From the IMG/VR virus record IMGVR_UViG_3300037424_000402, positions 1 through 57,910 of that record: a stretch of DNA of 57,910 bases; one strand, given 5' to 3'. The stretch is from a virus. Its lineage: Duplodnaviria > Caudoviricetes. Positions 9,228-30,227 of this stretch are shown here, one piece after another. Both the position numbers and the translations under genes were made by a program. Positions within the stretch are counted from its first letter, which is position 1. Every line of letters starts with the position of its first letter. The notes below the pieces were generated by a model. That model had not been told where the DNA came from. It was given only the letters and a program-made list of their open reading frames with translations, and did not search any database.

Positions 9228-9400
9228 CACTTCTCCGATGGATCCGCCATCTTGAAGCCGCGACACCGCTTGCAGCCGCGCACGGTGCAGATACCATTCG
9301 GGCCGTGGACGTCGAGATGGTGACCGCACTCGCAGTAATGCAGTCCCACGTAGATCCGGAAGCTATCGTCCGGATTCTTCCTCCAACGCCCACGGCCCAT
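9227..9400 (-). CDS. Small Zn-finger protein (57 aa, not in the ORF track)
   Basis: Manually translated MGRGRWRKNPDDSFRIYVGLHYCECGHHLDVHGPNGICTVRGCKRCRGFKMADPSEK; TGATG overlap with the lysozyme start. Confidence 0.6.
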   Translation of the reverse strand: MGRGRWRKNPDDSFRIYVGLHYCECGHHLDVHGPNGICTVRGCKRCRGFKMADPSEK

Positions 9401-12661: not shown

Positions 12662-13963
12662 CTAGAACTCCTCGCGCCACGAAGCTCCGATCCGGCAGGT
12701 GACCGTTCCCGTCTCCGACGCGCAACTGAAGTTGAACGTCTCCCCTGGGTTGAGCCGAAGATTCAACGTTTCGAGGTTGAACACCTGATCGAACGAGGTG
12801 GCGAGTGGGAAAACGAGAGATCCGACTGTGACCGTCGTACCAGCAACGTCCACCGCAGCGACCGACTGTGTCGTCGAGATGTCGGTGAATACCGGGGCGC
12901 CACCTTCCGTTCCGTTGAGCACGATCTTCGCCGATGCCCCAGCGGTCACGGCCACCGAGACCGATGTGAGCCGAATGCGCGTGCGGTTCGTCGCACCGTT
13001 GAACGTGGCGCGGTTCTGCAACGTGAAGATGTTCGTATCGGCCGTCGTGACTCCGGTCTTCACGTTCGTGAACCCATTGCTGAGACCGACATCGTTGCGG
13101 GGCCCCTGCGTTGCCGCTCCCATCGATGCCGTCTGAAGGGTGATGTTCGTGGCGTTGCCGGTGTTGACCGTACGCGCCGAGAGGGGAAGCGACGGATTGA
13201 AGATCGACGGGAGTGTGTTCGAGTTCGAGTAGCGGATCGTGTGAACGAGGATCGGCTCGCCAGTGAGCGGGTTCTCCGCGAAGAATCGGATCGCTCCGAA
13301 CCCAAGCCACTGGAAATCGATCATGTAGACGTTGCCATTCGTGATGGCAAGCGTCTGACCACTCGGATTGACTGTGCCACCAGCCCCATTGAACCGATCG
13401 CCGTTCCACGCCGACTGTGCGACGAACGAATCGACTCCGCCGCGCCGACGATTGATTCCGAACGTGCCAGTCGTCGGATCGCAGGTGAAGAAGAATCCAT
13501 CGACGGTATTTCCGAGACCGATCTCCTGCACATTGTTCACCACGCAGGTGGAGAAGATCGCCGTGAAGCGTGTGATGATGCCTTGCCCTGGGGAATACTT
13601 GATCGCGAGGTTCGACTGGAACTGTGAAGCTCCTGCAATGTTCGCCGTTGTCTGAAGCGTCGCGAGATTGTTCGTTGCCGTGACGGTGCCGCCGTTCGCG
13701 ACCGTGGTGGTGACGAGACGGGGGTTGATCGCGTACGGGAATTGGAGGTGGATCTCCAATGTCTCCGACTCGACGAACACCGCACCGAACGCGCCGCGCT
13801 GGTAGCTTGGGAGGACCACCTGATTCGGAATGGCGGTCGGAGAGTTGGATCCCTGAGTCCGCCACGGGGTGACCGTGAGCGATCCCTGCCCCTGGTTCAC
13901 CGTCGTTTGCGCGAACGCCACCGTGGCGAAGAGAGCGATCAGAATTGCGAGTGTCTTCTTCAT
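12662..13963 (-). CDS. Secreted beta-rich (lectin/beta-sandwich-like) protein, candidate spike
   Basis: Signal peptide MKKTLAILIALFATVAFA; Thr/Asn/Val-rich; YMIDFQWLGFGAIRF motif. Confidence 0.65.
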   Translation of the reverse strand: MKKTLAILIALFATVAFAQTTVNQGQGSLTVTPWRTQGSNSPTAIPNQVVLPSYQRGAFGAVFVESETLEIHLQFPYAINPRLVTTTVANGGTVTATNNLATLQTTANIAGASQFQSNLAIKYSPGQGIITRFTAIFSTCVVNNVQEIGLGNTVDGFFFTCDPTTGTFGINRRRGGVDSFVAQSAWNGDRFNGAGGTVNPSGQTLAITNGNVYMIDFQWLGFGAIRFFAENPLTGEPILVHTIRYSNSNTLPSIFNPSLPLSARTVNTGNATNITLQTASMGAATQGPRNDVGLSNGFTNVKTGVTTADTNIFTLQNRATFNGATNRTRIRLTSVSVAVTAGASAKIVLNGTEGGAPVFTDISTTQSVAAVDVAGTTVTVGSLVFPLATSFDQVFNLETLNLRLNPGETFNFSCASETGTVTCRIGASWREEF

Positions 13964-13979: not shown

Positions 13980-14726
13980 CTACTTGACGAAGAGCGCGAA
14001 ATTGAATGACGAGACTTCTGGATTGAATAGCAGATCGCTAATTTGCACGGACTTGATCGCGTCTGTAGCGTGAGTTATCGCAATCAAGAAACCGGGGGCA
14101 TTGAGTATGTCGACTAACAGGATGCATTCGGAGGGAGCACGCGGAGTGTCGAGCGTGATCGCATAAAGACCCGTCCCAATCCCTTGCCATACGACAGTAC
14201 AGCCCTTCAGGAAGCCCGGGCCGGGAACCGTAGTACCTATTGTTCCATCCGGTCCCACGTTGCATCCCGCTTCAAAGGCTCCTCCACCACTCGACACGGC
14301 TGTCCATCCGGTGTTTCCAGTGCCAGACTCCTTCACATAGAGCGTCGTTCCACCGGCGCCGTCGAGCCGAAGGAAGATGCTTCCCACTGGCGCGGTGACC
14401 ACCCCCTCGGGGCTTCCGTTGCCGGCTACGAACGCGGCATTTCCAGGGCCAATGAGTGGCGAGCCAACGAGGGGGGAGAGCAGGGCGATCTGTCCGAGGT
14501 CGGTCGTCTGGAATTCGCCACCCGCCGTGGATGCCTGAGTCACGAGTTGATTGATCCGTGGACGCATGATGGAAGGATCACCACCATTTGGGAATTCCTG
14601 GCAGAGGATCGCGACGATCTCGCTGAAAGCTCCATCCGGAAGCTGCGATCCAATTCCTAGGATCAACGTCACCGACTCGGCGATCCGATCGGTGTAGTCG
14701 CTTGGATAAAAGAGTCCGCTGCTCAT
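13980..14726 (-). CDS. Putative spike/receptor-binding protein 2
   Basis: N-terminal about 60 aa paralogous to the upstream gene; GSPEGVVTAPVGSIFLRLDG...LYVKESGTGNTGW fibre-type module. Confidence 0.65.
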   Translation of the reverse strand: MSSGLFYPSDYTDRIAESVTLILGIGSQLPDGAFSEIVAILCQEFPNGGDPSIMRPRINQLVTQASTAGGEFQTTDLGQIALLSPLVGSPLIGPGNAAFVAGNGSPEGVVTAPVGSIFLRLDGAGGTTLYVKESGTGNTGWTAVSSGGGAFEAGCNVGPDGTIGTTVPGPGFLKGCTVVWQGIGTGLYAITLDTPRAPSECILLVDILNAPGFLIAITHATDAIKSVQISDLLFNPEVSSFNFALFVK

Positions 14727-16315
14727 GTGCGTGAGACCCTCGAAAGGAAGTTAGCATCGGTGACGAACGTCGCGGCGGTCAGGTTCGCATGCGTGGTCGT
14801 TGTGGCCCCAACGATGATGTCGCCAGCGGTTCCTGTGACTGTCGTGCCGACACCGAGAACCGCGAGACATCCAGCCTTGAGTCGGATCCCGAACCCGACA
14901 TTCCCCGTTCCGGTGAGAGTGAGAGGCGCCGCCGTCCCAGCCTCACCGAGACCGCTGACACCTAGCTTGCTGCCATCACTGACGATGATGGCATCGGCCG
15001 TGCAATTACTGAACTCGTATGTGCCTCCGCTCACCATCCGGAGCGTGCTGTTTCCCGACAAAACAAGAAGGGCCACAGTCGTCAGGTTCAATCCATCGAA
15101 TTTCCCGTTAGATCGAAGCGTGACAACGCTATCAGCGGTAAAGTGGATCTGTGTCGCGCGGAAGCTCGGACCGGACAACGTAACCTGAGCACCCAGACCA
15201 CCCAAGAAGCAGTTGTCCATGATGAGACTGAGGAAGAACCGATTTTGCGCTGCGGTCACTGAAGCCTGGTTGACTCCTCCACTAAGCTGAACCCCGGTCG
15301 TCGCGTTCGTGACGCCATTGAAGAGGTAGAAGAACGTGCTATCGATCACCGCGCCAGACGAGTTGGAAACGTCGGGGAACTCGACGCCGAGACCGCGCAT
15401 TCCAGCGATCGCGCCATTGGTGACGAATATAATCGACGTGTTCGTCGCGTTGAAGTTGGCCCAGCACGCATCCCAACCAACGTACGTCCCGCCCCCCTCG
15501 AAGAACATCGAACGATTCGTGAGTGAGAACTGGATTGCGTAGAACGCGATCGACGGCATTGGAACACGCCCGCCCATCGACGCCACACTGAACGTCGGCT
15601 CGGACGTTGGTGTGAGCGTGGTCCCCGGCTTCTCCACCACGAACGTATCGCCTGCCCCTGGCGCCCCTCCGGTGAGTGCGAATTGAAGAGTGAAAGCGGT
15701 TGCGGTGTTGCTGACGACGCCTCGTGTCTGCCCAGCCCGCGCTCCTGTGAGGTAGCGGATTCTCTGACCGCGAAAGGCATCCACCACCATCCCAGCGCCA
15801 CCCGTTACAACAATAGACGTCGATCCACCAGCATCGGTGAGCGTGCCGAGACCCGAGTCGATCATCGTGCCGATGATGAAGAGAGGCTCTGCGAGCGGAC
15901 CTATCGGTCCCGCGAAGGAGTAACCTCCTCGCCCCATCGTGTATGCTCCGACATCGAGCCGGATGCGGCACTTCCCACCCCAGAAGGTCGTCGGCAAGAG
16001 AGAGATCGCCTTGTCGAATGTCTTCAGAGGAAGCGCCGCCGTGCCGGGGTTCGCGTCGTTTCCGGTCGTGGCGTTCACGAAGAACTCGAAGTTCTCCGCA
16101 TCGACATCGAGCGAACCAGCGATGCCGAGACGAACGAGCGCGTCCATGCGGGCGCGAACGACTGATGGATCTCCACCGACGGGGAACTCCTGGCAAATGA
16201 TGGAAACGATCTCGTTGAAGACACCATCCGGAAGCTGGGTTCCGCCGAGGATCGACGACACCGACTCGGTGATACGATCGGAATACTCGCCAGGAGAGAA
16301 GAGTCCGCCGCTCAT
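14723..16315 (-). CDS. Putative spike/receptor-binding protein 1 with pectin-lyase-like beta-helix
   Basis: FFVNATTGNDANPGTAALPLKTFDKAI entry motif; long Gly/Thr beta-repeat region. Confidence 0.7.
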   Translation of the reverse strand: MSGGLFSPGEYSDRITESVSSILGGTQLPDGVFNEIVSIICQEFPVGGDPSVVRARMDALVRLGIAGSLDVDAENFEFFVNATTGNDANPGTAALPLKTFDKAISLLPTTFWGGKCRIRLDVGAYTMGRGGYSFAGPIGPLAEPLFIIGTMIDSGLGTLTDAGGSTSIVVTGGAGMVVDAFRGQRIRYLTGARAGQTRGVVSNTATAFTLQFALTGGAPGAGDTFVVEKPGTTLTPTSEPTFSVASMGGRVPMPSIAFYAIQFSLTNRSMFFEGGGTYVGWDACWANFNATNTSIIFVTNGAIAGMRGLGVEFPDVSNSSGAVIDSTFFYLFNGVTNATTGVQLSGGVNQASVTAAQNRFFLSLIMDNCFLGGLGAQVTLSGPSFRATQIHFTADSVVTLRSNGKFDGLNLTTVALLVLSGNSTLRMVSGGTYEFSNCTADAIIVSDGSKLGVSGLGEAGTAAPLTLTGTGNVGFGIRLKAGCLAVLGVGTTVTGTAGDIIVGATTTTHANLTAATFVTDANFLSRVSRT

Positions 16316-16317
16316 GA

Positions 16318-16674
16318 TCAGCCCCCAAGGAAATGCTGTAGGAAGAAGGCGGTGACGTTCACCGTCGCGGCGTGGATGTGGCAGACGTCGGCCTTGAACG
16401 GCCCGGCCCTCACGGCGGTCGTCGCGGGAACTCCACACACCATGCAACGTCCGCGCATCTCACTTCCTCTTCCCATCGCAGAGGCAAGAGTCGGCACCTG
16501 CGCGACGACCCGAGGCGATCCGTCGGACACCCTGCGGGCGCGGAGCCTGACCGGCGGCGCCACGAAGGGCGGCGGCAGTGAAGGCGTCTCCGGAGGGACC
16601 TCTCTCCACTCCACGTCCACCACCGGACCCTGTCCGTAGCCGGCGAGCGAGCGCTTCGAGGAACGAGTTGCCAT
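16318..16674 (-). CDS. Hypothetical protein with C-terminal CxxC...CxxH
   Basis: MATRSSKRSLAGYGQG...CMVCG...VCHIH; start placed manually at 16674. Confidence 0.55.
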   Translation of the reverse strand: MATRSSKRSLAGYGQGPVVDVEWREVPPETPSLPPPFVAPPVRLRARRVSDGSPRVVAQVPTLASAMGRGSEMRGRCMVCGVPATTAVRAGPFKADVCHIHAATVNVTAFFLQHFLGG

Positions 16675-16682: not shown

Positions 16683-17015
16683 CTACCTCCACACTGCGTG
16701 GATCTTCCGCTTCGCTGCGAGCGACCTCGGCTCGATCACGCACGCGCGGATGAAGCGCTCGATCACAGCGCGTGGTCCCTTGCCGCCGTAGCTTCCGCTG
16801 ATCCTCGGACCGCTCGCCGACCGGTCGATGAGATACGATCCCTGCGCCTGCGCAAGTGAGATCGCGAGGTGAGCCGCCGTCGCGCAGTCGGGCGGTGCCT
16901 TCAGGTGACGCTTCAGCGCGCCGCGAAGCCGGTTGATCTCTCGCAGCGTGCCCTTGGCGCGATCCGCGTGGTAGTCGGTCGGATCTCCGTAGCGCTTGCG
17001 ACGTCTCCGAGCCAT
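16683..17015 (-). CDS. Basic core-like protein
   Basis: MARRRRKRYGD N-terminus; GGAGG RBS. Confidence 0.7.
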   Translation of the reverse strand: MARRRRKRYGDPTDYHADRAKGTLREINRLRGALKRHLKAPPDCATAAHLAISLAQAQGSYLIDRSASGPRISGSYGGKGPRAVIERFIRACVIEPRSLAAKRKIHAVWR

Positions 17016-17018
17016 GAC

Positions 17019-17477
17019 CTACCTCCCGATCTTCCTGACGCGGCACCCGGTCCACCACCCCTTCCGGGAGAGCCTCTGGACCGCCTTCGTTGCGGCCGAC
17101 TTCTTCTTGTGGATCGACTTCGTGACCATCGTCCTCGTGCTCGACGGGCAGACGACCTTGTAGCGGTAGCCCTTCGCCTTGGTGTTCTTCCGAAGAGCGG
17201 TCTGGAGCCATCGGAGCCCGGCGAGCGACGGCACCTTGAACGGCCGGCGCGGACGCGAGCGGTTGCGGTACGCGCGCGTGATCGTCCTGCCGCCCCGCTG
17301 GCGGGTCTGGATCTGGATCTCGCCACCCGTGGCGGCGGCGATGAAGTAGTCGGCGCGGAACCTGGGATTGTCGGCCGCGAACTTGCGTGCCCACTCGTCG
17401 ATCTCCGCGCGAGGTGATCCCTTCGCCTTCAGACCGACCGCGATCGTCTCGTAGTGCCGTCTCTGCCACTTGGCCAT
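17019..17477 (-). CDS. Basic hypothetical protein
   Basis: FAADNPRFRADYFIAA motif; Arg/Lys-rich C-terminal half. Confidence 0.7.
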   Translation of the reverse strand: MAKWQRRHYETIAVGLKAKGSPRAEIDEWARKFAADNPRFRADYFIAAATGGEIQIQTRQRGGRTITRAYRNRSRPRRPFKVPSLAGLRWLQTALRKNTKAKGYRYKVVCPSSTRTMVTKSIHKKKSAATKAVQRLSRKGWWTGCRVRKIGR

Positions 17478-18994: not shown

Positions 18995-19870
18995 TCAGAT
19001 CCTCCCGAACCGGACGACGTCGATCTCGGCTTCGGCGAGCACCGCCGCGTTGCCGAGATCGAACGCGGAGAGCCCACCTTCATCGAGACACAGCCGGAGG
19101 AAGTCCTCCGGGATCGAGATGGTGGGGAACGGCGCGAAGAGCGGATCAGTCGATGCCGGGAAGGTGACTTCGCAGAACGTCGAGTTGAGATCCGCCACCG
19201 CGACCACTCCGAGATCGCTCTCGTCGAACTCGCGCGACCCACGGAAGACGAGACCGACCGCGACCGGAGCGGCAATCTGGAGACGAAGCCGCAGGAGCGT
19301 CCGGGTGGGAACCACGCGGATCAGGGGGTTGCCCTTCTGATCGGCCGAGTTCGTGCCACGCACCGCCTGTGACCATGGGAACTGAAGGGGCCAGTTTCGC
19401 TTCAGTGCCGGGAGTGGTGATGCCGACGCCTGGATCAAGAGGCGTGTGCGATGGAAGATGAACTCCGGCAGGGCCGACCCGACGTCGAGCTTCGCTTCAG
19501 GCGTGTGGGCGATGAGGAGAAGCCCGCGCCCACCACCGAGCCAGCCGAACGGGAGCCCGTACTCCATCGACGTGAACGGGCCCGGCTGGATCACCTGCCC
19601 CGGCTTCAGGAGAAGGACGCCCGAGTCGTTATCTGATCCGTAGAACTTCACCGCGAGGGGAGTGTCGGACGAAGAGTGGAGACCGACCGCTCGTCCCGCG
19701 CCTTCGTACTTCAGCACCCGGTACTTGGTGCTCGCCACGACCGGGATCACATCGGGCGTGGGGATGATCGGCTGGTTCGTGTTCTGGACGAGGATCGCCG
19801 TCTCTTGAAGCGTCGTGTCGAGGTAGCTCTGGTAGAGGAAGTTGACCGGGATCTGCGAGATCGCGCGCAT
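18995..19870 (-). CDS. Beta-rich structural protein (possible penton/minor capsid)
   Basis: Directly follows the jelly-roll-like paralogs; LLLKPGQVI and terminal IDVVRFG strand patterns. Confidence 0.45.
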   Translation of the reverse strand: MRAISQIPVNFLYQSYLDTTLQETAILVQNTNQPIIPTPDVIPVVASTKYRVLKYEGAGRAVGLHSSSDTPLAVKFYGSDNDSGVLLLKPGQVIQPGPFTSMEYGLPFGWLGGGRGLLLIAHTPEAKLDVGSALPEFIFHRTRLLIQASASPLPALKRNWPLQFPWSQAVRGTNSADQKGNPLIRVVPTRTLLRLRLQIAAPVAVGLVFRGSREFDESDLGVVAVADLNSTFCEVTFPASTDPLFAPFPTISIPEDFLRLCLDEGGLSAFDLGNAAVLAEAEIDVVRFGRI

Positions 19871-19871
19871 G

Positions 19872-20813
19872 CTATCTCCTCACTGCCCGGTAGCCGAGCA
19901 TTCCGATGAACACTTGAACGGGGCGCGGCGTCTCTGGAACCGCTTGGTTCTGGAAGATGGACTGCACCGACGCGCGATAGAACCCCTTCGCTGGGAGCAT
20001 GGAGTTCACGACCCACGACTTACGGATCATGTCGAACAAGATCCCGATCGGCGTGGCGTCACGCGCCACCTGCGTTCCATCGTGAGCTTCCAGTCTCACA
20101 CGGATGTTGTCGAAGTAGAACGCGAACTGACCGGTGGTTCCATTGTTCCGATCAGGCTCTACGGGGGATGTGGCGCTGTCACTCCCGAAGAAGACGCGCG
20201 AGATGAAGCGCTCGACGAGGATCTCTTCTCCGAACGGGTTCACGAGATCGGCCGATGTCGAGATATCCTCGAAGTTGCCGGAACCATCGGTGTGCGCAGG
20301 CGGCTTGTAGAAGGAGAACCACGGGGTGAAGGCTTCCCCGATGATCGCATCCGCCTCACGGCAGATTGCCGTGATCACGTACGTGCTCGCCTCAGTGTCC
20401 CGGTGGCGAACCTGCACGTTGATCGCCTGTCCAATTGCGAGGTAGACAGGACGATGGAACTTCATCACGAACGCAGAGAATGATCTCTGGAATGGATCGG
20501 GGGTGCTCCCCGCGCGACGGATCTCGAACTCGAAATCGCCGACTGGCCACGTCACCGCAGGGATCGGGGAGAACTCGGCCGTGATCGGCTCGTTGCCGAT
20601 GCGCAGCCGGATCTCTCCTGTTGAGAAGGCCGGCATCCTCGTGGATCGAGGATTCGAGGATGAGGTCAACCACGACCGGATCCGAATCTCGTCGATGCGC
20701 AGGATCTTCGCGGTGCGATTCTCCAACCCCCGGACGTCCGTCGGAGATCCGATCAGGTTCGCCACGAGGCCTGGGATCGTCGCCTCCAGAAGAACCGGCC
20801 ACTTGGCGGTCAT
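19872..20813 (-). CDS. Putative double jelly-roll capsid-type protein, paralog 3
   Basis: LENRTAKILRIDEIRI / IGNEPIT / RPVYLAIGQAINV / DLVNPFGEEILVER / IGMLGYR; internal duplication. Confidence 0.55.
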   Translation of the reverse strand: MTAKWPVLLEATIPGLVANLIGSPTDVRGLENRTAKILRIDEIRIRSWLTSSSNPRSTRMPAFSTGEIRLRIGNEPITAEFSPIPAVTWPVGDFEFEIRRAGSTPDPFQRSFSAFVMKFHRPVYLAIGQAINVQVRHRDTEASTYVITAICREADAIIGEAFTPWFSFYKPPAHTDGSGNFEDISTSADLVNPFGEEILVERFISRVFFGSDSATSPVEPDRNNGTTGQFAFYFDNIRVRLEAHDGTQVARDATPIGILFDMIRKSWVVNSMLPAKGFYRASVQSIFQNQAVPETPRPVQVFIGMLGYRAVRR

Positions 20814-21748
20814 GACAGCGCCTCCTGCCGCGTTCCGAAGAGAGAGACGTGGTATCCAGTGTTCGCGGTCTCGGTTGTATCGAGCGCATTCAGGCTGATC
20901 TCCGCTCGAATGCGCGTGTTCCCTGGCATCTCGAAGATGCCATTCGGCCAGAGGCGGCACTGACCGAAGAGGCGCGGGAACTCGACGAAGTCCTCGGACA
21001 TCACTTCACTGTCCGGGAAATGCAACTGGATCGTCGTCCCACGAGACTCCCAGAGGGTCCGGATGAAGTCCGACCCACCACCGATCGTCTGCTGGTAGAA
21101 GACCGACCCCATCATCCGATGAACCTTGATCGGACCGGTGAGCGGGTTCTGAAGCTCGTTCTCCAGCGACACCCGATGTGTCTGGGAAAGCTGGACGTGC
21201 GAGATCATCGGAACATCGTTGAACTCTGGCAGCTTGTCGGCGGGGGAGAGGAACCGACCGATCATCGTGATGGTGACGATCGACGTGAATGTCGTGTCGA
21301 ACGTCGCCAGGAACTCGTTCGGTGGGATCGTGAGCACTGCATTGAAACCCATCCCAGGGAGAACGATCAATGGCTTCGGCAGGACGATCCGACGGCGCTC
21401 GGCGCGAGTCGCCGTTGTCGCGCTGACTTGATTGATCCCGAAGTTGTCTTCGCTCACCTTGAATGGAGCGACAACGTCGAGAGGAACCGGCCCGTCGGTG
21501 ATGGAGTGCTTCCCGAACTTCGCGTCGATGTAGATCGACTGCGCGGCAGTCAGAAGAGAATTGATCCCGTACTCCGTCCGGATGAGGACATGGATCTCTC
21601 GGATCTCGATTGGCATCCGGAACGTGTTCGTCAGCGGGGACGGATCGATCTGGGTTCGAGCACCACCGAACGTAGCCCCTGGAGCGGTGAACGCGATCGT
21701 CGCCTCGGTGGACGACGCAAATGGGTTTCTGAGATTGCGGCCCGGCAT
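20810..21748 (-). CDS. Putative double jelly-roll capsid-type protein, paralog 2
   Basis: LTNTFRMPIEIREIHV / FGKHSIT / KPLIVLPGMGFNA / ELQNPLTGPIKVHR / VSLFGTR. Confidence 0.55.
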   Translation of the reverse strand: MPGRNLRNPFASSTEATIAFTAPGATFGGARTQIDPSPLTNTFRMPIEIREIHVLIRTEYGINSLLTAAQSIYIDAKFGKHSITDGPVPLDVVAPFKVSEDNFGINQVSATTATRAERRRIVLPKPLIVLPGMGFNAVLTIPPNEFLATFDTTFTSIVTITMIGRFLSPADKLPEFNDVPMISHVQLSQTHRVSLENELQNPLTGPIKVHRMMGSVFYQQTIGGGSDFIRTLWESRGTTIQLHFPDSEVMSEDFVEFPRLFGQCRLWPNGIFEMPGNTRIRAEISLNALDTTETANTGYHVSLFGTRQEALS

Positions 21749-21750
21749 GG

Positions 21751-22788
21751 CTAGATCCCTTCCTCTCTCCATCCGAGAAATGCGACCGACGCTTGTCCTG
21801 TCCACGTCGTATACGGCTGAAGGATCGGTGTCGCGCCAGCCGTCTTCCTGATCCCGACGCGCAGGAAGTCATTCGGCTCCATGACATGTGGGATGTCCAT
21901 CGACCGGCTGTTCCCGAACACGGCGAGGAAGTTCTGGTAGTCCCGGAGGATCGGGAGATTGTTCGACGTGTTGATCCGACCCGTGATGATGGACGTATTG
22001 TACGAATCGTTGTCCACCACAGCACCGGAGAAGCCATCGGCGATTGCTCGCGTGATCAGGACGCGCCCTGTCAGGCGATCGATGTTGAGATCGTGACCGG
22101 TTTTGTTCACGAGGTCGCTCTCGGACGACTCATCGAACCCGACTTCCGCGTACTCGAACCCCCGCGAGACATACGCCGAAGCGTACGGGATCGCCGATGT
22201 CGTCTTCCGAGCCGCGACGTATCGACCGGCGAGACCGATCTGCGCGCGAGCCGTGAACCGAAGTGCGCCGGAGTGTTGGAACTGCGCTTCGATCTGTGCT
22301 CCCGGCGGAAGGAACATCGGCTGAGACAGGCGCCAGATGTAGAAGCTCGCCGCCTCGTTGCCTGGGAGAGTTCCGGCCGACACTTGGCTCGGATACTGCT
22401 CGATCTTCCCGAGGAGCCACATCGGGACGAACGAGTTCGTGATCGGCTTTCCCATCGCCGACATACGGACGCGGATGAAGGAGGCGACGTCAACCGCCTC
22501 CATCTGCTCCTGTGGAGGAATGCGCGCGGCGAGCCGGATCTCGTGGATCTCGATCGACTTGCCCGTGCGGTTCGAGAGCGCTTCCGAGTTGATCGTACCT
22601 TCGCCGCCGGCCACGACATCGGCCTCGGCGAAGAAGTGAACCGGAGGGTAGAAGGGCGTCCCCATCGTGGTGCGCGGATCGAAGACCTTCACGATCGGCG
22701 ACGGTCGCATCACCGGTGGTCTGGGAGCGGGACGGGCGGGGGGCTTCCTGGGGGTCCACGGTGAGGCGGCGAGACGGAACTTTGCCAT
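21751..22788 (-). CDS. Putative double jelly-roll capsid-type protein, paralog 1
   Basis: LSNRTGKSIEIHEIRL / MGKPIT / QPMFLPPGAQIEA / DLVNKTGHDLNIDR / VAFLGWR. Confidence 0.55.
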   Translation of the reverse strand: MAKFRLAASPWTPRKPPARPAPRPPVMRPSPIVKVFDPRTTMGTPFYPPVHFFAEADVVAGGEGTINSEALSNRTGKSIEIHEIRLAARIPPQEQMEAVDVASFIRVRMSAMGKPITNSFVPMWLLGKIEQYPSQVSAGTLPGNEAASFYIWRLSQPMFLPPGAQIEAQFQHSGALRFTARAQIGLAGRYVAARKTTSAIPYASAYVSRGFEYAEVGFDESSESDLVNKTGHDLNIDRLTGRVLITRAIADGFSGAVVDNDSYNTSIITGRINTSNNLPILRDYQNFLAVFGNSRSMDIPHVMEPNDFLRVGIRKTAGATPILQPYTTWTGQASVAFLGWREEGI

Positions 22789-22802
22789 GTGAAACCCTCC
22801 GA

Positions 22803-22816
22803 GCGCTGCAAGCTAC
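22803..22816 (-). promoter_or_regulatory. Repeated intergenic motif GTAGCTTGCAGCGC (candidate late promoter)
   Basis: Identical 14-mer at 24264-24277; one-mismatch 12-mer core at 23633-23644. Confidence 0.55.
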
Positions 22817-22832
22817 TCAGGGTGAATGCTAC

Positions 22833-22882
22833 CGGTGGAGGGTCAGAGCCACTCGGGGGAGCAGAACTCCGACCCTCCACCG
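22833..22882 (-). terminator. Long stem-loop just after the putative major capsid gene
   Basis: CGGTGGAGGGTC...GACCCTCCACCG inverted repeat. Confidence 0.65.
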
Positions 22883-22891
22883 TTCCAGGGA

Positions 22892-23575
22892 CTACCGGAC
22901 CTCGGCGCCGACTGCTGCGAGGAGGTTGACCCACGCCAGCACCGGCTGGCCGGGGGTCACCGTCACGGTGAACACCAGCGCCGACTGCGGCGTGAGCTTC
23001 GCCACGACGGTGTCCGTCGAGCCGATCATGATCGGCACGCGGAACCGGCGGCCGGTCTGCGACGCGCCGTTCGTCGCGAACCCGGGGTGCGCGGTGAACG
23101 TGGTGGCGGTCGCCCAGATCCCGCCCGTCGGGGGGAACATCCAGACGGGACCGATAATCCGGCGCTTCCGGGTGATCAGGAACTCCAGGGTGACGCGGCT
23201 CTGGAGATCGGCGACCTCGACCGGGGTCGCGCCGAACGCCTTCACCGTGCCGATCACGTTGGCGGTCGCGACGTCGAACGTCACGCCGATCGCCTTCACG
23301 CCGGCATCGCCGATGTTCGAGCCCAACTCGCCAGCCTTTTCGAGGTTGGTGGTCTGCTCGGTGTAGGAGGTGTAGTGCGACGGCTCGCCGGTTGCGGCGA
23401 CGCCGGCACCGGCCGTGTGCGGGATGCCCTGGCCGAGCGGCACCGTGAAGAGGGTGAGCGGGGTGGCTCCGCCGTGCTGGAAGACGCCGGCCGAGTAGAT
23501 GTGTTCGTCGCGAAGATCGAGCTTGTCCGGCACTGCGGTCGCGCTCGGCCGTGTTCTGGGGATCATCACCTTCAT
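22892..23575 (-). CDS. Putative major capsid protein (single jelly-roll-like)
   Basis: All-beta pattern (LTLFTVPLGQ, TNLEKAGELG, VKAIGVTF, FRVPIMI); very strong codon bias; own upstream motif, AGGAG RBS and downstream hairpin. Confidence 0.5.
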   Translation of the reverse strand: MKVMIPRTRPSATAVPDKLDLRDEHIYSAGVFQHGGATPLTLFTVPLGQGIPHTAGAGVAATGEPSHYTSYTEQTTNLEKAGELGSNIGDAGVKAIGVTFDVATANVIGTVKAFGATPVEVADLQSRVTLEFLITRKRRIIGPVWMFPPTGGIWATATTFTAHPGFATNGASQTGRRFRVPIMIGSTDTVVAKLTPQSALVFTVTVTPGQPVLAWVNLLAAVGAEVR

Positions 23576-23673: not shown

Positions 23674-24213
23674 CTAGTAGGGGAAGCCGGAGTAGTCGTC
23701 CTGATCCTCACCCATCGAGTAGGCGGCAAGCTCGCTCATCCGCTGCGAGCCCTCGTCCACGAGGAGGCCCATCGGGTTGACGTCGGTGAGCAGACCGTAC
23801 CCACCGAGGTTCACGTCCACGTAGCCCTGGAAGATGCCGGGCAGCATCCCGGCAGCCATGCCGGTGACGATCGGAACCACGCCAGCCAGCGCCGCGCCGA
23901 CGTAGATCCCTTCTCCCTTGTGCTGGTTCTTCAGCAGCATCTTGGCGAGGACGCCCGCGAGGATCGCGGAGATCGGCCCCATGTAGCGCTGGACGAACTC
24001 CGGCGCGGTCGGCCAGAAGTTCGTGATCTGCCTGGCGAGGACGCTTCCGCCGAGGGTGCCCGCGACCATGCCGATCGCGACATCGGTGGAACCGACGCTC
24101 TTGCCGAGCGGGTTGAGCCCCTTGACGCCGGGGAGCTTGAACTTGCCGAACCCCAGCGGAACGGAGATGTAATCCCCGTAGCTGCGGCGGCGGCGACGAC
24201 GGTGACGTGCCAT
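23674..24213 (-). CDS. Membrane protein with Arg-rich N-terminus (putative DNA-membrane linker)
   Basis: MARHRRRRRRSYGD; about three hydrophobic helices; acidic C-terminus. Confidence 0.75.
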   Translation of the reverse strand: MARHRRRRRRSYGDYISVPLGFGKFKLPGVKGLNPLGKSVGSTDVAIGMVAGTLGGSVLARQITNFWPTAPEFVQRYMGPISAILAGVLAKMLLKNQHKGEGIYVGAALAGVVPIVTGMAAGMLPGIFQGYVDVNLGGYGLLTDVNPMGLLVDEGSQRMSELAAYSMGEDQDDYSGFPY

Positions 24214-24579: not shown

Positions 24580-24933
24580 TCAGCCGGTGCGAACCGGGCA
24601 CGCTCTCTGGACGATGTCGAGCAGCCGATCGATCTTGTTCGAGTATTCGCCGCGTGGGCGGCCCTTCGCGCCCCGTTCGCGGGCGTACGCCGGAAGCGAG
24701 CGAGCATGTGCCTGCGCCATACCGGCGTGCCAGTTCGCCACTCCGAAATACTTCCAGGCGTTGTAACAAGCCTCCTGTTTCGCCCAGCGACGAACCAGCC
24801 GAGACGTGACGAGGAAGCTCTTCGCCGCGCTCTTGGTGGCGTTGTAGTGGATCTCCGGTGGCGAGCCGAACCGCTTCGCGCTCCGCTTCTTGCGGCGGAG
24901 CTTGCGATTCTTCTTCGAGTAGCCGCGTAGCAT
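24580..24933 (-). CDS. Basic core-like protein
   Basis: MLRGYSKKNRKLRR; GYSKKNR also occurs in 25231-25587. Confidence 0.7.
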   Translation of the reverse strand: MLRGYSKKNRKLRRKKRSAKRFGSPPEIHYNATKSAAKSFLVTSRLVRRWAKQEACYNAWKYFGVANWHAGMAQAHARSLPAYARERGAKGRPRGEYSNKIDRLLDIVQRACPVRTG

Positions 24934-24936
24934 GGT

Positions 24937-25227
24937 CTACCTCCGCCCCTTCTTCTTCTTGAGAAGGATCGCCGCGCCGACCCCGGCGATCGCGACGAGA
25001 GGGAGCCACGACGGGATTCCGCTCCCGAACATGCCACCACCCGGTGCGCCCGCGCCCATGAGGGCAAGCTGATCGGCCGTGGGGGGCTTGGACTGCGCGC
25101 CCTTCACGAGCCCGACCGTGCGAGCCGCCGCGCCCGTTGCGTCCCCGCGCAGCGCCGACCCGACGATCGTCGTGGATGGGATCACCGCGCGAAGGAAATC
25201 GAGTGCTCCACCGTAGCTCTCTGCCAT
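24937..25227 (-). CDS. Small membrane protein with basic tail
   Basis: MAESYGG; C-terminal TM then KKKKGRR. Confidence 0.7.
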   Translation of the reverse strand: MAESYGGALDFLRAVIPSTTIVGSALRGDATGAAARTVGLVKGAQSKPPTADQLALMGAGAPGGGMFGSGIPSWLPLVAIAGVGAAILLKKKKGRR

Positions 25228-25230
25228 GGT

Positions 25231-25587
25231 CTAGCCCTTCCTCTTGCCTGCGCGGCGTGTCCTGCGGACGCGGCGGTTCTTCTTCGAGTAGCCGTGAAGC
25301 TGGACGTTGCCCGACCACTTCCGCGTTTGCGCCCCTCCACCGGGGAAGATCACGACGCTCGTCTCGCGGATGCAGTGCGTCGGCCGCTCGTGGTGCGACA
25401 TCTGGCAGACGAGGAGACCACCCGACTTCTTCCCCTCGGCGCGGAAGCCGCCACGACGGCCACCACGCGAGATCGCGATCCCATTCTTGATCGGCTGGAT
25501 CTTGAATGTGATCTTTCGCCCGTACAGCTTGTCGGGCCAAGTGAACTTCGATCCGGTCGTGACTGTGATGGTCTTTCGCTTCGCCAT
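25231..25587 (-). CDS. Basic core-like protein
   Basis: Ends LHGYSKKNRRVRRTRRAGKRKG. Confidence 0.7.
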   Translation of the reverse strand: MAKRKTITVTTGSKFTWPDKLYGRKITFKIQPIKNGIAISRGGRRGGFRAEGKKSGGLLVCQMSHHERPTHCIRETSVVIFPGGGAQTRKWSGNVQLHGYSKKNRRVRRTRRAGKRKG

Positions 25588-25590
25588 GGG

Positions 25591-26205
25591 TCAGTCCTCC
25601 AACCAGATCGAGAGGGCCTTGCGCTTCGGTGGTTCCCAGCCGACGACCGACTTCTCGACCGTCGTGTCCATGCCGTGACCGGTGTAGCTCGCCGGCCACG
25701 GGCCGCGCTTGGGCAGCGCGACGATGCAGTAGACGTGGGTGAACTCGGTGCGGGATGGATCGGGACCCCACGCCCGCGCGCCGACCTTGAACCCGATCGA
25801 GGCGAGAAGTGACCCGACGAGAATGGTGTGATCGTCGCAATCGCCCGCGCAGGATCCTATCTGGCACTCCATGAGCGTGCGACGCGCGCCGGTGTAGAAG
25901 TCCACGGCGGTCGGATCGGCGATGTAGCGGAGACCGTCCTGCAAGCCCTTGATCTTGTCGGTGCCATGCTTCACGGCATTGAAGATCGCTTGTAGCTCGC
26001 ACATATCGTCGCGCGAGTTGCAGTCGGATGTGATCTGGATTGCGGTGCGGCGTACGACCGGATCCGTCGATCCCTTCTCGACGAGGGAGAGGATCTTCCT
26101 CAGTGCGGCTTGCTGAGATCCTACGTCGCGGATCGTGAATGTGCCGCGCTCACTGCGCGCCCAGCCCGATTCCTGCGCTCCGTATCTCGAAGGCACTTCG
26201 AGCAA
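25591..26205 (-). CDS. Transglutaminase-like (papain-fold) Cys enzyme, candidate maturation protease
   Basis: LRYIADP, GDCDDHTIL (Cys), FTHVY (His), GMDTT (Asp) triad; start codon uncertain. Confidence 0.8.
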   Translation of the reverse strand: MLEVPSRYGAQESGWARSERGTFTIRDVGSQQAALRKILSLVEKGSTDPVVRRTAIQITSDCNSRDDMCELQAIFNAVKHGTDKIKGLQDGLRYIADPTAVDFYTGARRTLMECQIGSCAGDCDDHTILVGSLLASIGFKVGARAWGPDPSRTEFTHVYCIVALPKRGPWPASYTGHGMDTTVEKSVVGWEPPKRKALSIWLED

Positions 26206-26292
26206 CCTCGAAGGCCACGCCTGGGTCGAGACTGGTACAGAAAGGGGCGCTCCGCGTCAAGCGAAGCGCCCCAAATGAACACCGCGCCCGAG

Positions 26293-27702
26293 CTAGGCGG
26301 CGGTCGGTGCGGGCGGCGCGATCGTGGCCGCGATGTCCACTCCGCGCGACTTCGCGAGACCCTCGACGGTCGCGAAGAGCCTCTGCACGTAGGCCACATT
26401 GGCGGGGTTCCCCGCCCACGCCTCGCCGAGCCGCTTCCGCAGCGCGTCGATGAGACCACCCTCGTGCTGTGTCTGGGTCACGAACTCCGGAGATCCGATC
26501 GCTTCCACGATGGACTCCGCGAGATCGTTCGGATCTTCGAGTTCCCGGATGCTCTGTGCGAGGACGTCGAGCATCTGCGATGCGGTCATCTCGACTTCTT
26601 CCTCCACTTCCTCGGTCGGCTGCGGTGCAGCCCTCGGCGCGGCGCGCGGTGGAGCGATCTGACGTTGCGGCATCTGAGGAGGCTGCGCAGCGCGAGAGGC
26701 GTTCTCTGCCCACGCCGCGATCCCCACCTTCAGCACGCCCATGAGCGACTCGTCCTGTGGCGGCTCTTGGCGAAGCTCGCCGACCATCGCCACGGTCTGC
26801 ACCATCGATCGCGCGACGGTCGAGAGCGATTCGGTGAAGACGCCGATCACCTTGGCCGACTCCGTGGACTGCGTTGCGATCTTCTCCATGAGCGCGGATT
26901 CGCGTTGCTGCCGCGCCTCGTCCGTCTTCGCCTCGCGGCCGAGCCGAGCCTCTTCGGCCCGCGCCTCTCTCTCCCGAGACGCCGACGACGCCTCGATCAT
27001 CTTCGCCACGATCGGGGCAATCACGACCCCGGCGGCGGCGATGAACTTCTCCAGATCGAACGACGGCGCCTGGTTCTGGATCGCCATCGCGGCGATCCGA
27101 GCATCGATCGCCTTCATCGAGGCTTCGCTCTCGCGGCGGACCGCATCGAGTTCCATCCGGTGACGTTGCTCGGAGAGAGCCTCACGCTCGCGCTGAAGTT
27201 GTAGCAGAAGGGCGGATCCCCCATCACTGCCTGTCGGCAGGGTCGGCGTGACCTCGTGGGAGGGGGATCCGCCCATCTTGCCGTTCGTCCCCGGTTGCGT
27301 CTTCGGCTTGTTCATTCCAGGGACGAACTGGATTTTCATGTTGGACGGCCACTCGGGAAGCTCTGCGACGCGCGGGTTCGGAGGGAGAATGTCACCCGCG
27401 ATCGCAGGGATCTGGTAGAGCGCGGAGAAGATCCCAGTTGCCTTGTCCTTCGCATGCTGGACTTGCAGGACGTAGTACGGTGACCCACCGGCGAGGAGAG
27501 AGATCCACGCCTCGGGATTCATCACCTGTTCGAGCGTGACGTAATCCACGACGGCGATCGTCTCGGGCGCACCGCCGGACGACGGTCTGCGCATGATGCG
27601 CACGCGGAACTCGTCGCCGTCCGCTTGCATCCGCTCGGTGAGAGAGATCGCCGCCTGCGCGCTTGTCGTCGCGATGTCGGGATTCGTGAAAGTCGGGTTC
27701 AT
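26293..27702 (-). CDS. Large coiled-coil/Pro-rich protein (assembly scaffold-like)
   Basis: AGGAG RBS; central coiled coils flanking a hydrophobic helix. Confidence 0.7.
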   Translation of the reverse strand: MNPTFTNPDIATTSAQAAISLTERMQADGDEFRVRIMRRPSSGGAPETIAVVDYVTLEQVMNPEAWISLLAGGSPYYVLQVQHAKDKATGIFSALYQIPAIAGDILPPNPRVAELPEWPSNMKIQFVPGMNKPKTQPGTNGKMGGSPSHEVTPTLPTGSDGGSALLLQLQREREALSEQRHRMELDAVRRESEASMKAIDARIAAMAIQNQAPSFDLEKFIAAAGVVIAPIVAKMIEASSASREREARAEEARLGREAKTDEARQQRESALMEKIATQSTESAKVIGVFTESLSTVARSMVQTVAMVGELRQEPPQDESLMGVLKVGIAAWAENASRAAQPPQMPQRQIAPPRAAPRAAPQPTEEVEEEVEMTASQMLDVLAQSIRELEDPNDLAESIVEAIGSPEFVTQTQHEGGLIDALRKRLGEAWAGNPANVAYVQRLFATVEGLAKSRGVDIAATIAPPAPTAA

Positions 27703-28014: not shown

Positions 28015-28332
28015 TCAGATCAGCGCGGTTAGCTTCGCCAGGACGTAGTTCGTCCCCGCGATGTAGAGACCCCACGCAATTGCGAGGATCGGATGATGAA
28101 GCGGGGAGAGGAGCACGAGGATCGGGACGTAACCAAACCAACCGGCCACGAAGCCGATCCAGAATCCGAGACACGCCGGGCACTCGATGAGCGTGATCAA
28201 CCAGAAGCGTGGCCCAGCCATCTTCGGCGGATCTCCGGCGATCCACCGGCGGACCGGGAGCGAGACCACCGAGTGCCCAATGCAATAAACCAGACCGAAG
28301 CATGCCATTGTGAAGAAGATCAGATCGATCAT
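28015..28332 (-). CDS. Membrane protein with CxxC (DUF1360-like)
   Basis: LITLIECPACLGFWIG; about three TM segments. Confidence 0.7.
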   Translation of the reverse strand: MIDLIFFTMACFGLVYCIGHSVVSLPVRRWIAGDPPKMAGPRFWLITLIECPACLGFWIGFVAGWFGYVPILVLLSPLHHPILAIAWGLYIAGTNYVLAKLTALI

Positions 28333-28637
28333 TTCCGCTCTCCTGACCTGACACCTTCGATCCACGTCTCGATCTCATCGACGGTCAGACCGCCGACATG
28401 GACGAACGCCTCGCGACCGTAGCGCAGGACGTATGTCGGCGTCGCCTTCACTTTGATCCCCAGCCTCGCAGGATACGGCCCCTCGGCTTGGAGACGGAGC
28501 ACCATCATCGACGTCTTCTTCACGAACTTGTCGAGATCGGGCTCTGCCTCTGCGCAGGCTTCACATGAGGTCGAATAGATGAAGATCAGATCGGTGAAGG
28601 GTTCGATCTGAAGCGCCGACGCGGCTCCGCCGATCAC
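28329..28637 (-). CDS. Thioredoxin-fold protein
   Basis: IFIYSTSCEAC active-site motif and VKATPT cis-Pro loop. Confidence 0.75.
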   Translation of the reverse strand: MIGGAASALQIEPFTDLIFIYSTSCEACAEAEPDLDKFVKKTSMMVLRLQAEGPYPARLGIKVKATPTYVLRYGREAFVHVGGLTVDEIETWIEGVRSGERK

Positions 28638-29385: not shown

Positions 29386-29640
29386 CTATTTCACCTTTTC
29401 GACGTTGGAGATCGAGATCGTGATGTCGCCGATCCCGTTTGCGACATGACCACTGGTAGCTATGAGAACGACACGATCGTCGAGCATCACCATCTTCGAG
29501 AGACACCCGACGATCACATTCACGACGTCGTGTGGAACTCCGCCGTCCCCCGGAGACCTCTCGGTCGAATCTTGGATCGTGAGCATCGCCTTCTGGGGAT
29601 CGTCGGCGCAGAATTTCCGAGACCATGACATCGGGATCAC
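29386..29640 (-). CDS. Hypothetical protein
   Basis: Tight operon packing; AAGGAG RBS. Confidence 0.55.
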   Translation of the reverse strand: MIPMSWSRKFCADDPQKAMLTIQDSTERSPGDGGVPHDVVNVIVGCLSKMVMLDDRVVLIATSGHVANGIGDITISISNVEKVK

Positions 29641-30227
29641 TCCTTTCGACCCTGCGCCATTCTCATGATCGTATCGAAGGCTGCGGACCCGATGCGCTGA
29701 TCGGATCGTGACCGGGACTTGAAGCGCTGATCGTTCTCAGGGCAGCCTCCGTAAAAGGCAGCGGCGACGGGAACTCGCTCGCTCTCTGTGAATGCAGCGC
29801 AGATCCCGAAATCGTATTGGATCGATGCGTTCACCGATAGCAGATCATCGGGCGTCACGGATAGCGATCCGGACTTGCGGCCGAGTAGCTCACCGCGCAT
29901 CGCATCGAGTTGCTTCTGCCCGGCGACGGTGTCGGAGATCGCGGCGAGATGTTTCAGGTACGCATCGCGTCGCCAGTGTTCGCACAGTTCACAGCGTGTC
30001 GCGGCGGCTTGGGCGACTTCACCGGCGGTTGTGTCCACGCCGACCATGCCTCGCAGGCTTCCCGCTGCGGCGCCGGAGCCGGGCGCAACGGCTTCGGAGG
30101 AGATGTTCACCTCGACGGGCATCGAGAATGCCTCGGTGGCGGGGCGCTCTTCTGGTTCGAGCGGCGTGCCCGCGTCGTCGCGCGTGGCGGGGATGACTCG
30201 CAGTAACTCACCCCCGGAGGTTTTCAC
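29637..30227 (-). CDS. Hypothetical Cys-containing protein
   Basis: CELCEHW...GIC...GGCP. Confidence 0.6.
   Translation of the reverse strand: MKTSGGELLRVIPATRDDAGTPLEPEERPATEAFSMPVEVNISSEAVAPGSGAAAGSLRGMVGVDTTAGEVAQAAATRCELCEHWRRDAYLKHLAAISDTVAGQKQLDAMRGELLGRKSGSLSVTPDDLLSVNASIQYDFGICAAFTESERVPVAAAFYGGCPENDQRFKSRSRSDQRIGSAAFDTIMRMAQGRKE

Follow-up and report, generated by a model that had tools for sequence, protein, structure and literature searches.

A predicted double jelly-roll virion module in a 58-kb viral genome points to an undescribed lineage of large non-HK97 bacterial viruses

Introduction

What kind of particle carries the genome of the virus represented by IMG/VR record IMGVR_UViG_3300037424_000402? 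This stretch of 57,910 nucleotides, which in its full length is here called the window, is assigned to the Caudoviricetes, and the question is raised by five adjacent minus-strand open reading frames (ORFs) at positions 18995-23575. From the letters alone, the initial annotation discerned among them one single and three paralogous double jelly-roll-like proteins, recognized no terminase, portal, HK97 capsid or tail genes, and proposed an undescribed lineage of large tailless phages with a tailed-phage-style replication module. The analysis reported here leads to the same general picture: most likely, the window represents an undescribed lineage of membrane-containing, non-HK97 bacterial viruses with genomes of 52-80 kb. 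More specifically, we put at roughly three in four the probability that this is a complete bacterial virus genome whose virion module is of the vertical jelly-roll type (PRD1-adenovirus lineage, Bamfordvirae-like) and not of the HK97 type. The virus is probably non-HK97 and membrane-containing and, we infer, tailless.

A tandem triplet of predicted double jelly-roll proteins

The five genes on which the argument turns are, in the order of transcription:

22892..23575, minus strand: predicted single jelly roll of 227 amino acids (aa), which could be a vertex (penton) protein or a second shell protein (AlphaFold2, VIA)
21751..22788, minus strand: paralog A, predicted double jelly roll, 345 aa, with residues 1-46 low-confidence and Pro/Arg-rich (AlphaFold2, Foldseek, VIA)
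20810..21748, minus strand, within the ORF 20810-21805: paralog B, 312 aa from an inner start backed by a Shine-Dalgarno (SD) motif (hhalign to the A profile)
19872..20813, minus strand, within the ORF 19872-20960: paralog C, 313 aa, likewise from an SD-backed inner start (hhalign to the A profile)
18995..19870, minus strand: conserved 291-aa protein, candidate further shell or vertex component (43 relatives; syntenic in loci L001, L006 and L009)

No Pfam or PHROGs family was found for any of the five in the scan of all 76 window ORFs (69 + 7; Pfam at E <= 0.01, PHROGs at E <= 0.001). The genes are tightly packed: 2 nt separate A from B, the B stop overlaps the C start (ATGA), and the 291-aa gene follows C after 1 nt, whereas the gap from the 227-aa gene to A measures 103 nt. 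Direct BLASTP comparison of the paralogs yields weak scores, with E 7e-11 for A and C, 0.012 for A and B and 0.034 for B and C. An exhaustive search recovered relatives of A in 401 representative clusters at E <= 0.001, 186 of them at E <= 1e-10, and 12 relatives were found for C. The profile made from an alignment of 108 of the 401 relatives matches both other paralogs end to end in hhalign, C with E 1e-27 over 296 columns and B with E 2.3e-16 over 271 columns. The three tandem paralogs of 312-345 aa in the initial annotation thus retain their coordinates, with lengths of 345, 312 and 313 aa from the SD-backed starts and with profile homology over the full length.

Each paralog had also been described as internally duplicated. 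The two halves of the A profile indeed align with each other (hhalign probability 93.7, E 2e-7, 104 columns; reversed controls, E 0.29 and 0.47), and the motifs that had been singled out are among the aligned columns; the same comparison made with C or B on its own, for which the alignments are shallow, gives a fainter signal (E 0.0013 and 0.069, respectively). A repeat that is still visible in the sequence is unusual for a double jelly-roll coat protein. Across the paralogs, the N half of A matches the N halves of C (E 3e-28) and B (4e-23), and its C half matches their C halves (3e-36 and 8e-22). With like halves matching like halves, the gene triplication therefore came after the domain duplication.

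The AlphaFold2 (AF2) model of paralog A, computed from the 108-row alignment, is all-beta and consists of two halves, with a predicted local distance difference test score (pLDDT) of 89.7 (89.1-89.7 across the five models) and a predicted template modelling score of 0.84. When this model was compared with the PDB using Foldseek, P3 of PR772/PRD1 came out on top (E 2e-9), followed by PBCV-1, SGIV and STIV; among the matches listed, all 21 had a probability of 1.00 and 20 were capsid proteins. VIA, a structural aligner that is independent of Foldseek and considers Z 8 the meaningful level, gave the following matches to coat proteins:

STIV coat: Z 13.2, 257 residues aligned
PRD1 P3: Z 11.3, 261 residues aligned
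EhV-201: Z 10.0, 291 residues aligned
FLiP: Z 9.8, 235 residues aligned
PBCV-1: Z 9.6, 293 residues aligned
SGIV: Z 9.1, 277 residues aligned
PM2: Z 8.9, 220 residues aligned
phiCjT23: Z 8.7, 208 residues aligned

Paralog A is predicted with high confidence to be a double jelly roll, and B and C, by full-length homology to A, are predicted double jelly-roll proteins as well. The fold comparison that had been suggested as a check, run on the 345-aa paralog with AF2 and Foldseek, came out in favor of a double jelly roll, with STIV, PRD1/PR772, PBCV-1, FLiP and PM2 among the matches.

Whether the three chains assemble with one another was approached by predicting a complex of A (residues 40-345) with its two paralogs. 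When C was taken as the partner, the scores were 0.80, 0.79 and 0.81, and they dropped to 0.00 and 0.00 when the partner was replaced; however, with B swapped for an unrelated protein, C still scored 0.67. Because of this last control, the prediction counts neither for nor against a heterotrimer.

The predicted single jelly-roll protein and its possible roles

The 227-aa gene that precedes the paralogs was initially noted for strong codon bias, and its G+C content at third codon positions (GC3) is 0.93, compared to 0.74-0.83 in its neighbours and the highest among the listed ORFs longer than 200 aa. It is both the most conserved and the most codon-biased gene of the virion module. The AF2 model, based on 29 relatives, is a jelly-roll sandwich with a pLDDT of 77.3, and its VIA matches include SPV1 (Z 6.8-7.3), HHIV-2 (6.6), SH1 (5.5) and VP17 of P23-77 (5.3-5.5), with HCIV-1 also in the top rows. 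Of the claim that this is a single jelly-roll protein, the sandwich architecture stands, but the matches behind it are weak (Z 6.6-7.3); the model supports a single jelly roll, and a closer assignment is unsupported. Kinship between the single and double jelly rolls did not reach significance, either between alignments A1 (227-aa protein) and A2 (paralog A), with probability 6% and E 0.006, or between A1 and the N half of A (18.6%, E 0.0013).

Immediately behind this gene lies a conspicuous element:

22833..22882, minus strand: long G+C-rich hairpin with a stem of ~22 bp, just past the 227-aa stop codon, in the 103-nt gap (RNA folding)

The region 22780-22900 folds at -57.5 kcal/mol (z -3.26), and none of 200 shuffled sequences folds as well. 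The hairpin 22833-22882 has no T tract and was not picked up by the terminator scan; it is a possible attenuator or 3' stabiliser.

These features bear on which of the two protein families would build the shell. Conceivably, the shell consists mainly of the 227-aa protein, in the manner of SPV1 and sphaerolipoviruses, and the double jelly-roll paralogs are minor, vertex or outer-layer components. Such a design would agree with the GC3 value and the strong hairpin behind the gene, with an identity to its L001 counterpart of 44% against ~25% for the paralogs, with the shell proteins of SPV1 and HHIV-2 being the best structural matches, and with homologs that lack double jelly-roll neighbours in loci L016, L018 and L020. 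Taken together, the conservation, the codon bias, the hairpin and these solitary homologs hint at a role more abundant than that of a penton. Nevertheless, we consider this arrangement improbable: all structural matches of the 227-aa protein fall below Z 8, the double jelly-roll family is large (401 representative clusters) and conserved over its full length, and the absence in L016 covers a 10-kb stretch only. Moreover, in known viruses that have a double jelly roll, the double forms the shell and the single forms the penton.

Relatives, closure and integrity of the genome

The 227-aa protein has 35 relatives, the longest contigs among which measure 52.1, 54.7, 55.0, 55.7, 57.3, 66.3 and 79.7 kb; two copies are in NCBI, in metagenome-assembled genome proteins of Thermoanaerobaculia and Pseudomonadales. 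These relatives, on contigs reaching 52-80 kb, together with the 401 double jelly-roll clusters, bear out the proposal of an undescribed lineage. In IMG/VR, scans with the 345-aa or the 227-aa protein alone turned up no close relative of either, and alignment A3 had no match among viral contigs. Pattern scans yielded 20 loci for comparison, 2 from IMG/VR and 18 from metagenomes. One of these, L001, is part of G001, a complete 75,450-bp relative with a 123-bp terminal repeat and a PolA that is 41% identical to that of the window; its module genes are in the same order. Exactly three tandem double jelly-roll ORFs follow the single jelly-roll gene in the window and in three of the four loci with at least 3.5 kb downstream (L001, L006 and L009); the fourth, L016, has none within 10 kb. 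Among the 13 loci that extend at least 300 bp past the single jelly-roll gene, the next ORF belongs to the double jelly-roll family in 9, the exceptions being L004, L016, L018 and L020.

The paralog copies group by position, albeit weakly. The best BLAST scores follow gene position for A and B, and in a tree of 13 paralog copies, the position labels require 3 changes, against a mean of 6.4 after shuffling and with as low a number in 1 of 200 shuffles. None of the branches is starred or well supported, and only group B forms one clan (support 87/90).

The exceptional loci deserve a brief description. The 227-aa homologs in L016 (3842-14531), L018 and L020 are 30-36% identical to the window protein, and L016 keeps the 179-aa membrane protein upstream of its homolog and has 125-aa and 505-aa ORFs of no known family downstream of it. 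L004 is 95% identical to the window across the 227-aa gene, and the similarity ends exactly at the stop codon; in the place of paralog A, this locus has an open-ended 168-aa ORF (L004:946-1537) that is HNH-like by eye and Pfam negative, possibly a mobile element inserted between the genes (22789-22891 in the window).

The genome had been called closed, and the ends of the window agree:

1..127, no strand: terminal repeat, identical to 57784-57910

The 127-bp direct repeat implies a complete virus genome of ~57.8 kb, and direct terminal repeats are the class assigned to the record. Coding-like ORFs form two blocks, one on the minus strand at ~7.9-30.6 kb, with nearly no database matches, and one on the plus strand that takes up the remainder and runs across the circle ends. 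There are no tRNA genes in the window.

A virion module reminiscent of Varidnaviria combined with tailed-phage-like replication genes is an unusual mix, such that one might suspect an assembly artifact in which a small jelly-roll virus was joined to a fragment of a tailed phage. The evidence makes this highly improbable: the same combination is seen in G001, which is an independent record of 75 kb and has a terminal repeat of its own, relatives of the 227-aa protein reside on contigs of 52-80 kb, and, with G+C ranging from 58 to 70% along the window, there is no composition break at the module boundary. Furthermore, a contig of 9,238 bases from run X1 spans 24874-34111, across the boundary between the virion and replication blocks, with 0 differences, though X1 is likely to be the source sample itself. 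Contigs from a second sediment run cover parts of the module, also with 0 differences. Nine sequencing runs are listed for this DNA, none of them an RNA run.

With respect to the host, the SLT and PG_binding_1 genes and the SD motifs upstream of genes point to a bacterium with a murein wall. A eukaryotic host was considered and rejected given the SD motifs, the SLT and peptidoglycan-binding genes and the tyrosine integrase. Searches of GTDB genome contigs with alignments A1 and A5 gave no match, so that no host or prophage was identified there.

Tailed-phage hallmarks and the packaging ATPase

If the particle is not of the HK97 type, the signature genes of tailed phages should be missing, and this had been asserted in the initial annotation. 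In Pfam and PHROGs, none of the 76 window ORFs matches a family of terminases, portals, HK97-type capsids, tail tubes, sheaths or tape measures. The 86 ORFs of G001 are likewise free of matches to terminase, portal, HK97 capsid and tail-tube families, the cutoff for terminase, portal and capsid PHROGs being E <= 1e-4. When all six frames of the record were searched with PF03237 (Terminase_6N), no candidate emerged. The assertion therefore holds at the level of profiles for both genomes. The virion module contains no credible Walker A motif, only three chance-looking sites in small or membrane proteins, and there is no long tape-measure-like ORF in the window.

The packaging ATPase on the other side of the comparison is missing, too. 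An enzyme of the FtsK/HerA superfamily is the usual hallmark of viruses of the PRD1-adenovirus lineage. No FtsK/HerA, A32 or Zot-type packaging ATPase is detectable among the 76 window ORFs or the 86 ORFs of G001. The Odin and FLiP groups are likewise described as lacking the FtsK/HerA ATPase (PMC5894146).

Several observations weigh against the interpretation of this genome as that of a double jelly-roll virus, the missing ATPase being the first. Secondly, the absence of HK97, portal and terminase proteins pertains to sequence profiles, with the folds of the 291-, 469-, 456- and 574-aa proteins lying outside it. Two ORFs of G001 match 'tail fiber' PHROGs. Cellular double jelly-roll enzymes reach scores nearly equal to those of the coat proteins when compared with paralog A (Z 10.8-11.4 for GH172/DUF2961 and 8.6 for PNGase F), and because enzymes with the same fold score alike, the fold by itself is no proof of a capsid role. 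The candidate penton adds difficulties of its own: its VIA matches are all under the meaningful level, Foldseek returned nothing from the PDB at E <= 0.001, jelly-roll cement proteins of tailed phages (KHP40, Pam1) and copper monooxygenase domains are among its matches, its codon bias and hairpin fit a protein more abundant than a 60-copy penton, and distant homologs occur without a nearby double jelly roll in L016 (over 10 kb), L018 and L020. Finally, all structural roles assigned here are inferred ones.

Alternatively, the genome could belong to a tailed phage in which the HK97 capsid, the portal and the terminase are too divergent for Pfam and PHROGs to recognize. The jelly-roll proteins would then be accessory virion parts that serve in decoration or as cement, in the baseplate, in receptor binding or as carbohydrate-active enzymes. 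Such a phage would naturally possess replication genes typical of tailed phages, including an AAA ATPase 52.6% identical to those of Mycobacterium phages, as well as the 'tail fiber' and cyanomyovirus structural PHROG matches seen in ORFs of the window and G001; the same-fold enzymes at Z 10.8-11.4 and the cement proteins among the matches of the 227-aa model would fit as well. We regard this possibility as unlikely, however. The large terminase is normally easy to detect, and there is none in 162 ORFs from two complete genomes; the Walker A sites of the module are three in number and chance-looking, and no long ORF resembles a tape measure; and the only module ORFs of capsid or portal size without an assignment encode the 291- and 469-aa proteins. 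Of 108 A-family members, 0 match DUF2961, the PNGase F family or any other Pfam glycosidase family (E <= 0.01). Nor do accessory proteins usually come as a conserved, tightly packed triplet adjoining the gene that is best conserved in the module. The double jelly-roll virus remains the preferred interpretation.

Other genes of the virion module

The remaining features of the minus-strand block are, from the start of the module downstream:

29637..30227, minus strand: conserved 196-aa protein at the module start (homologs in 4 loci, same order)
28015..28365, minus strand: conserved 116-aa protein with three hydrophobic segments (hydrophobicity scan, synteny)
26293..27702, minus strand: 469-aa acidic protein (pI 5.0), the long central part of which is charged and looks helical (homologs in syntenic position in 5 loci)
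25591..26205, minus strand: conserved 204-aa protein with invariant Cys123, His157 and Asp180 (alignment A8)
24580..25587, minus strand: two very basic proteins of 117 and 118 aa flanking a 96-aa membrane protein (composition)
23674..24213, minus strand: conserved 179-aa Gly-rich membrane protein, upstream of the 227-aa gene (hydrophobic segment; homologs in 8 loci)
16683..17477, minus strand: two more very basic proteins, 110 and 152 aa, pI 11.4 and 11.8 (composition)
13980..16447, minus strand: spike- or fibre-like proteins of 574 and 248 aa with a common 62-residue N-terminal domain (66% identity, E 1e-24)
12662..13963, minus strand: 433-aa member of a virion structural protein family that is known in cyanomyoviruses (phrog_1645, E 6.8e-33)
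9720..10127, minus strand: peptidoglycan-binding protein (PF01471, E 9.7e-16)
8502..9329, minus strand: SLT lytic transglycosylase with a hydrophobic segment (PF01464, E 1.9e-5)

By a crude scale, about half of the 35 module ORFs contain hydrophobic segments. Six are very basic, with 23-36% lysine plus arginine and pI 11.3-12. The 117- and 118-aa proteins (25% lysine plus arginine, pI 11.3 and 11.9), of which the one at 24580-24933 has a homolog in L001, are candidate DNA-condensing core proteins; the basic protein at 16683-17015 has a homolog in L008 (E 1e-21).

Among the larger proteins, the 291-aa one matches neither the single nor the double jelly-roll profiles, and its Atlas look-up led to unnamed viral clusters (0.85), with a lead to PRD1_P5_spike_N at chance level (0.77). 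The 469-aa protein, which has no Pfam or PHROG family, falls in unnamed viral clusters (0.91) with a poor Atlas model (pLDDT 0.54) and, judged by eye, is a candidate scaffold or size-determining protein. The 204-aa protein probably has the fold of a transglutaminase-like cysteine protease: Pfam Transglut_core matches 3 of 7 family members weakly (best E 0.0063) and the window copy not at all. For the 179-aa protein, there is a weak glycine-zipper match (E 0.42). Profile searches of the PDB with alignments A1, A2, A4 and A8 returned nothing meaningful, A4 matching only designed Ig-like proteins (E 5e-6).

Alternative receptor-binding proteins that dock on one site typically share their N-terminus, and the 574- and 248-aa proteins are candidates for such a pair; neither has a Pfam family, and the former lacks a meaningful sequence match in the PDB. 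The phrog_1645 match is the sole structural label among the window ORFs. Its family extends, by tblastn, to 134 phage records, mostly of Synechococcus phages, and is also represented in G001, where one ORF matches phrog_1645 in addition to the two with 'tail fiber' matches. Not far from these genes, a 456-aa Gly/Ala-rich protein of no family (10563-11933, minus strand; four hydrophobic segments, pI 11.2) is a possible membrane-remodelling or fusion component.

A replication module of the tailed-phage type

The plus-strand block presents the other face of this genome. It encodes PolA, a DUF3987 primase, an SNF2 helicase, a PD-(D/E)XK nuclease, Sak4-like and SbcC-like proteins, several methyltransferases, a tyrosine integrase and an AAA+ ATPase; PolA, the SNF2 helicase, the primase and Sak4 match PHROG families. 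The AAA+ ATPase (PF00004) occupies a frame of ~520 codons across the circle ends (57032-57910 joined to 1-811, plus strand) and is 52.6% identical to the AAA-ATPase of Mycobacterium phages that are cluster-mates of Dylan. The tailed-phage-style replication module of the initial annotation is correct because of this plus-strand gene set, with its PHROG matches and an ATPase like that of Mycobacterium phages. Hence the genome is a chimera of two virus worlds, in the sense that a jelly-roll virion module is combined with replication and recombination genes of a kind common in tailed phages.

Several individual genes merit mention. PolA (45477-48443, plus strand) carries a fused uracil-DNA-glycosylase-like domain at its N-terminus (PF03167, E 1e-19); the PolA match of G001, at C1:31519-34110, contains one in-frame TAG. 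The AAA+ ATPase is followed downstream by members of phrog_11021 and phrog_11784, and by an ORF at 3370-4350 that matches a 'DNA topoisomerase' PHROG. At 4975-7555 (plus strand), a transposase-like ORF (phrog_4285, weak BED zinc finger) adjoins the tyrosine integrase, which suggests a temperate life style. The 121-aa ORF at 36752-37117 (plus strand) has matches, with E down to 3e-19, in nine different PHROG families of unknown function, always at the C-terminal end, and appears to be a widespread mobile domain. Two ORFs with S-adenosylmethionine-dependent methyltransferase domains at 53601-55845 (plus strand), the first of which also matches glycosyltransferase-type PHROGs, may modify DNA or the cell surface.

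A tentative model of the particle

If these assignments are correct, A, B and C would make up an icosahedral shell of pseudo-hexameric capsomers, which would be A-B-C heterotrimers or else homotrimers of three types that occupy distinct lattice sites; a fixed stoichiometry of the three is favoured by how tightly the genes are packed and by how old the triplet is. The 227-aa protein would be located at the five-fold vertices and perhaps at further positions, and a lipid vesicle inside the shell would be lined with the many small membrane proteins. The phrog_1645 protein and the pair of 574 and 248 aa with the shared N-terminus could serve as vertex spikes, the transglutaminase-like protein might mature or cross-link the particle, and the very basic small proteins might condense the DNA. 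At entry, the membrane-anchored SLT enzyme would open the wall, a function performed by P7 in PRD1. It is conceivable, but in our judgment rather doubtful, that all these traits define a deep, undescribed lineage, with genomes of 52-80 kb, A-B-C heterotrimers of ancient coat paralogs containing six different jelly rolls per capsomer, a coat sequence in which the duplication from single to double jelly roll is still visible, DNA packed with the aid of basic core proteins and no FtsK/HerA motor, and a virion module grafted onto a tailed-phage-type replication apparatus.

Implications

A lineage of this kind with 52-80 kb genomes would, if real, break the rule of small size for bacterial double jelly-roll viruses, and it would mean that large non-tailed phages have been filed as tailed phages owing to their replication genes. 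The conserved triplet of coat paralogs makes it possible to test whether a pseudo-hexameric capsomer is built from three different double jelly-roll chains, and the coat repeat that is visible in the sequence bears on the origin of the double jelly roll from the single one. How 58 kb of DNA enters such a shell becomes a question in its own right, given the lack of the usual packaging ATPase. On a practical note, naming the double jelly-roll family would annotate many metagenomic contigs because it spans 401 representative clusters with no Pfam or PHROG entry.

Comparison with known systems

The closest parallels are with the bacterial double jelly-roll viruses, namely, Tectiviridae (PRD1, PR772), PM2, autolykiviruses, FLiP and phiCjT23, with which the window shares the predicted double jelly-roll coat and, probably, the neighbouring single jelly-roll gene, as well as the many small membrane proteins, the membrane-anchored lytic transglycosylase and the vertex-spike-like proteins. 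Unlike PRD1-type viruses, it has a genome of 57.8 kb (52-80 kb in the relatives), three paralogous coat genes instead of one, neither an FtsK/HerA ATPase nor a protein-primed PolB, and replication genes of the tailed-phage type. Neither jelly-roll family has a tblastn match in 50,697 GenBank phage records. Paralog A is structurally most similar to B345 of STIV (Turriviridae), a protein of similar length (Z 13.2, root-mean-square deviation 4.5, 257 of 323 residues), although the identity in the structural alignment is 10% and STIV has a single coat gene. STIV is an archaeal virus of ~17 kb.

Among tailless phages, the nearest in size is SSIP-1, which is, to our knowledge, the largest tailless membrane-containing bacteriophage known, with a circular genome of 43,788 bp; it resembles the window in an SLT-like ORF and in two structural genes, of 320 and 290 aa, that lie side by side. 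Searches of its frames with the jelly-roll profiles A1 and A2 remained negative (best E 0.19-0.43), and only the transglycosylase has a match (E 1.5e-8). A review (PMC6356626) describes SSIP-1 as a tailless membrane phage of PRD1-type architecture with two types of capsid protein. The initial annotation put the known relatives at ~10-20 kb, which overlooks SSIP-1 at 43.8 kb. For prokaryotic double jelly-roll viruses, Yutin et al. 2018 (PMC5894146) give 7-18 kb. The Preplasmiviricota and Tectiliviricetes are characterized (PMC11071308) by genomes of <50 kbp, a length exceeded by both the window (57.8 kb) and G001 (75.4 kb).

Sphaerolipoviruses, P23-77 and SPV1 provide the best matches of the 227-aa protein and, similarly, build their shells from more than one jelly-roll protein, but they have no double jelly roll, whereas the window combines one single with three double jelly-roll proteins and so departs from Helvetiavirae. 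Their genomes are 17-31 kb. Several paralogous double jelly-roll coats, as here, are found in PBCV-1 and other giant viruses (Vp54 against A, Z 9.3-9.6); these viruses differ from the window in their eukaryotic hosts, genomes of >100 kb and A32-type ATPase, and PBCV-1 has one dominant paralog with rare variants. Capsomer variants of PBCV-1 are described in a preprint (10.1101/2025.01.23.634589). The double jelly-roll enzymes DUF2961/GH172 and PNGase F have been proposed as cellular kin of viral coats (PMC8812541); DUF2961/GH172 has the fold alone in common with the paralogs, the genes of which sit in a virion module.

In the literature within our search, that is, outside supplements and subscription journals, we found no bacterial double jelly-roll virus that exceeds 50 kb or has three coat paralogs. 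We rate the window as a case of a known coat fold in an unprecedented genomic setting.

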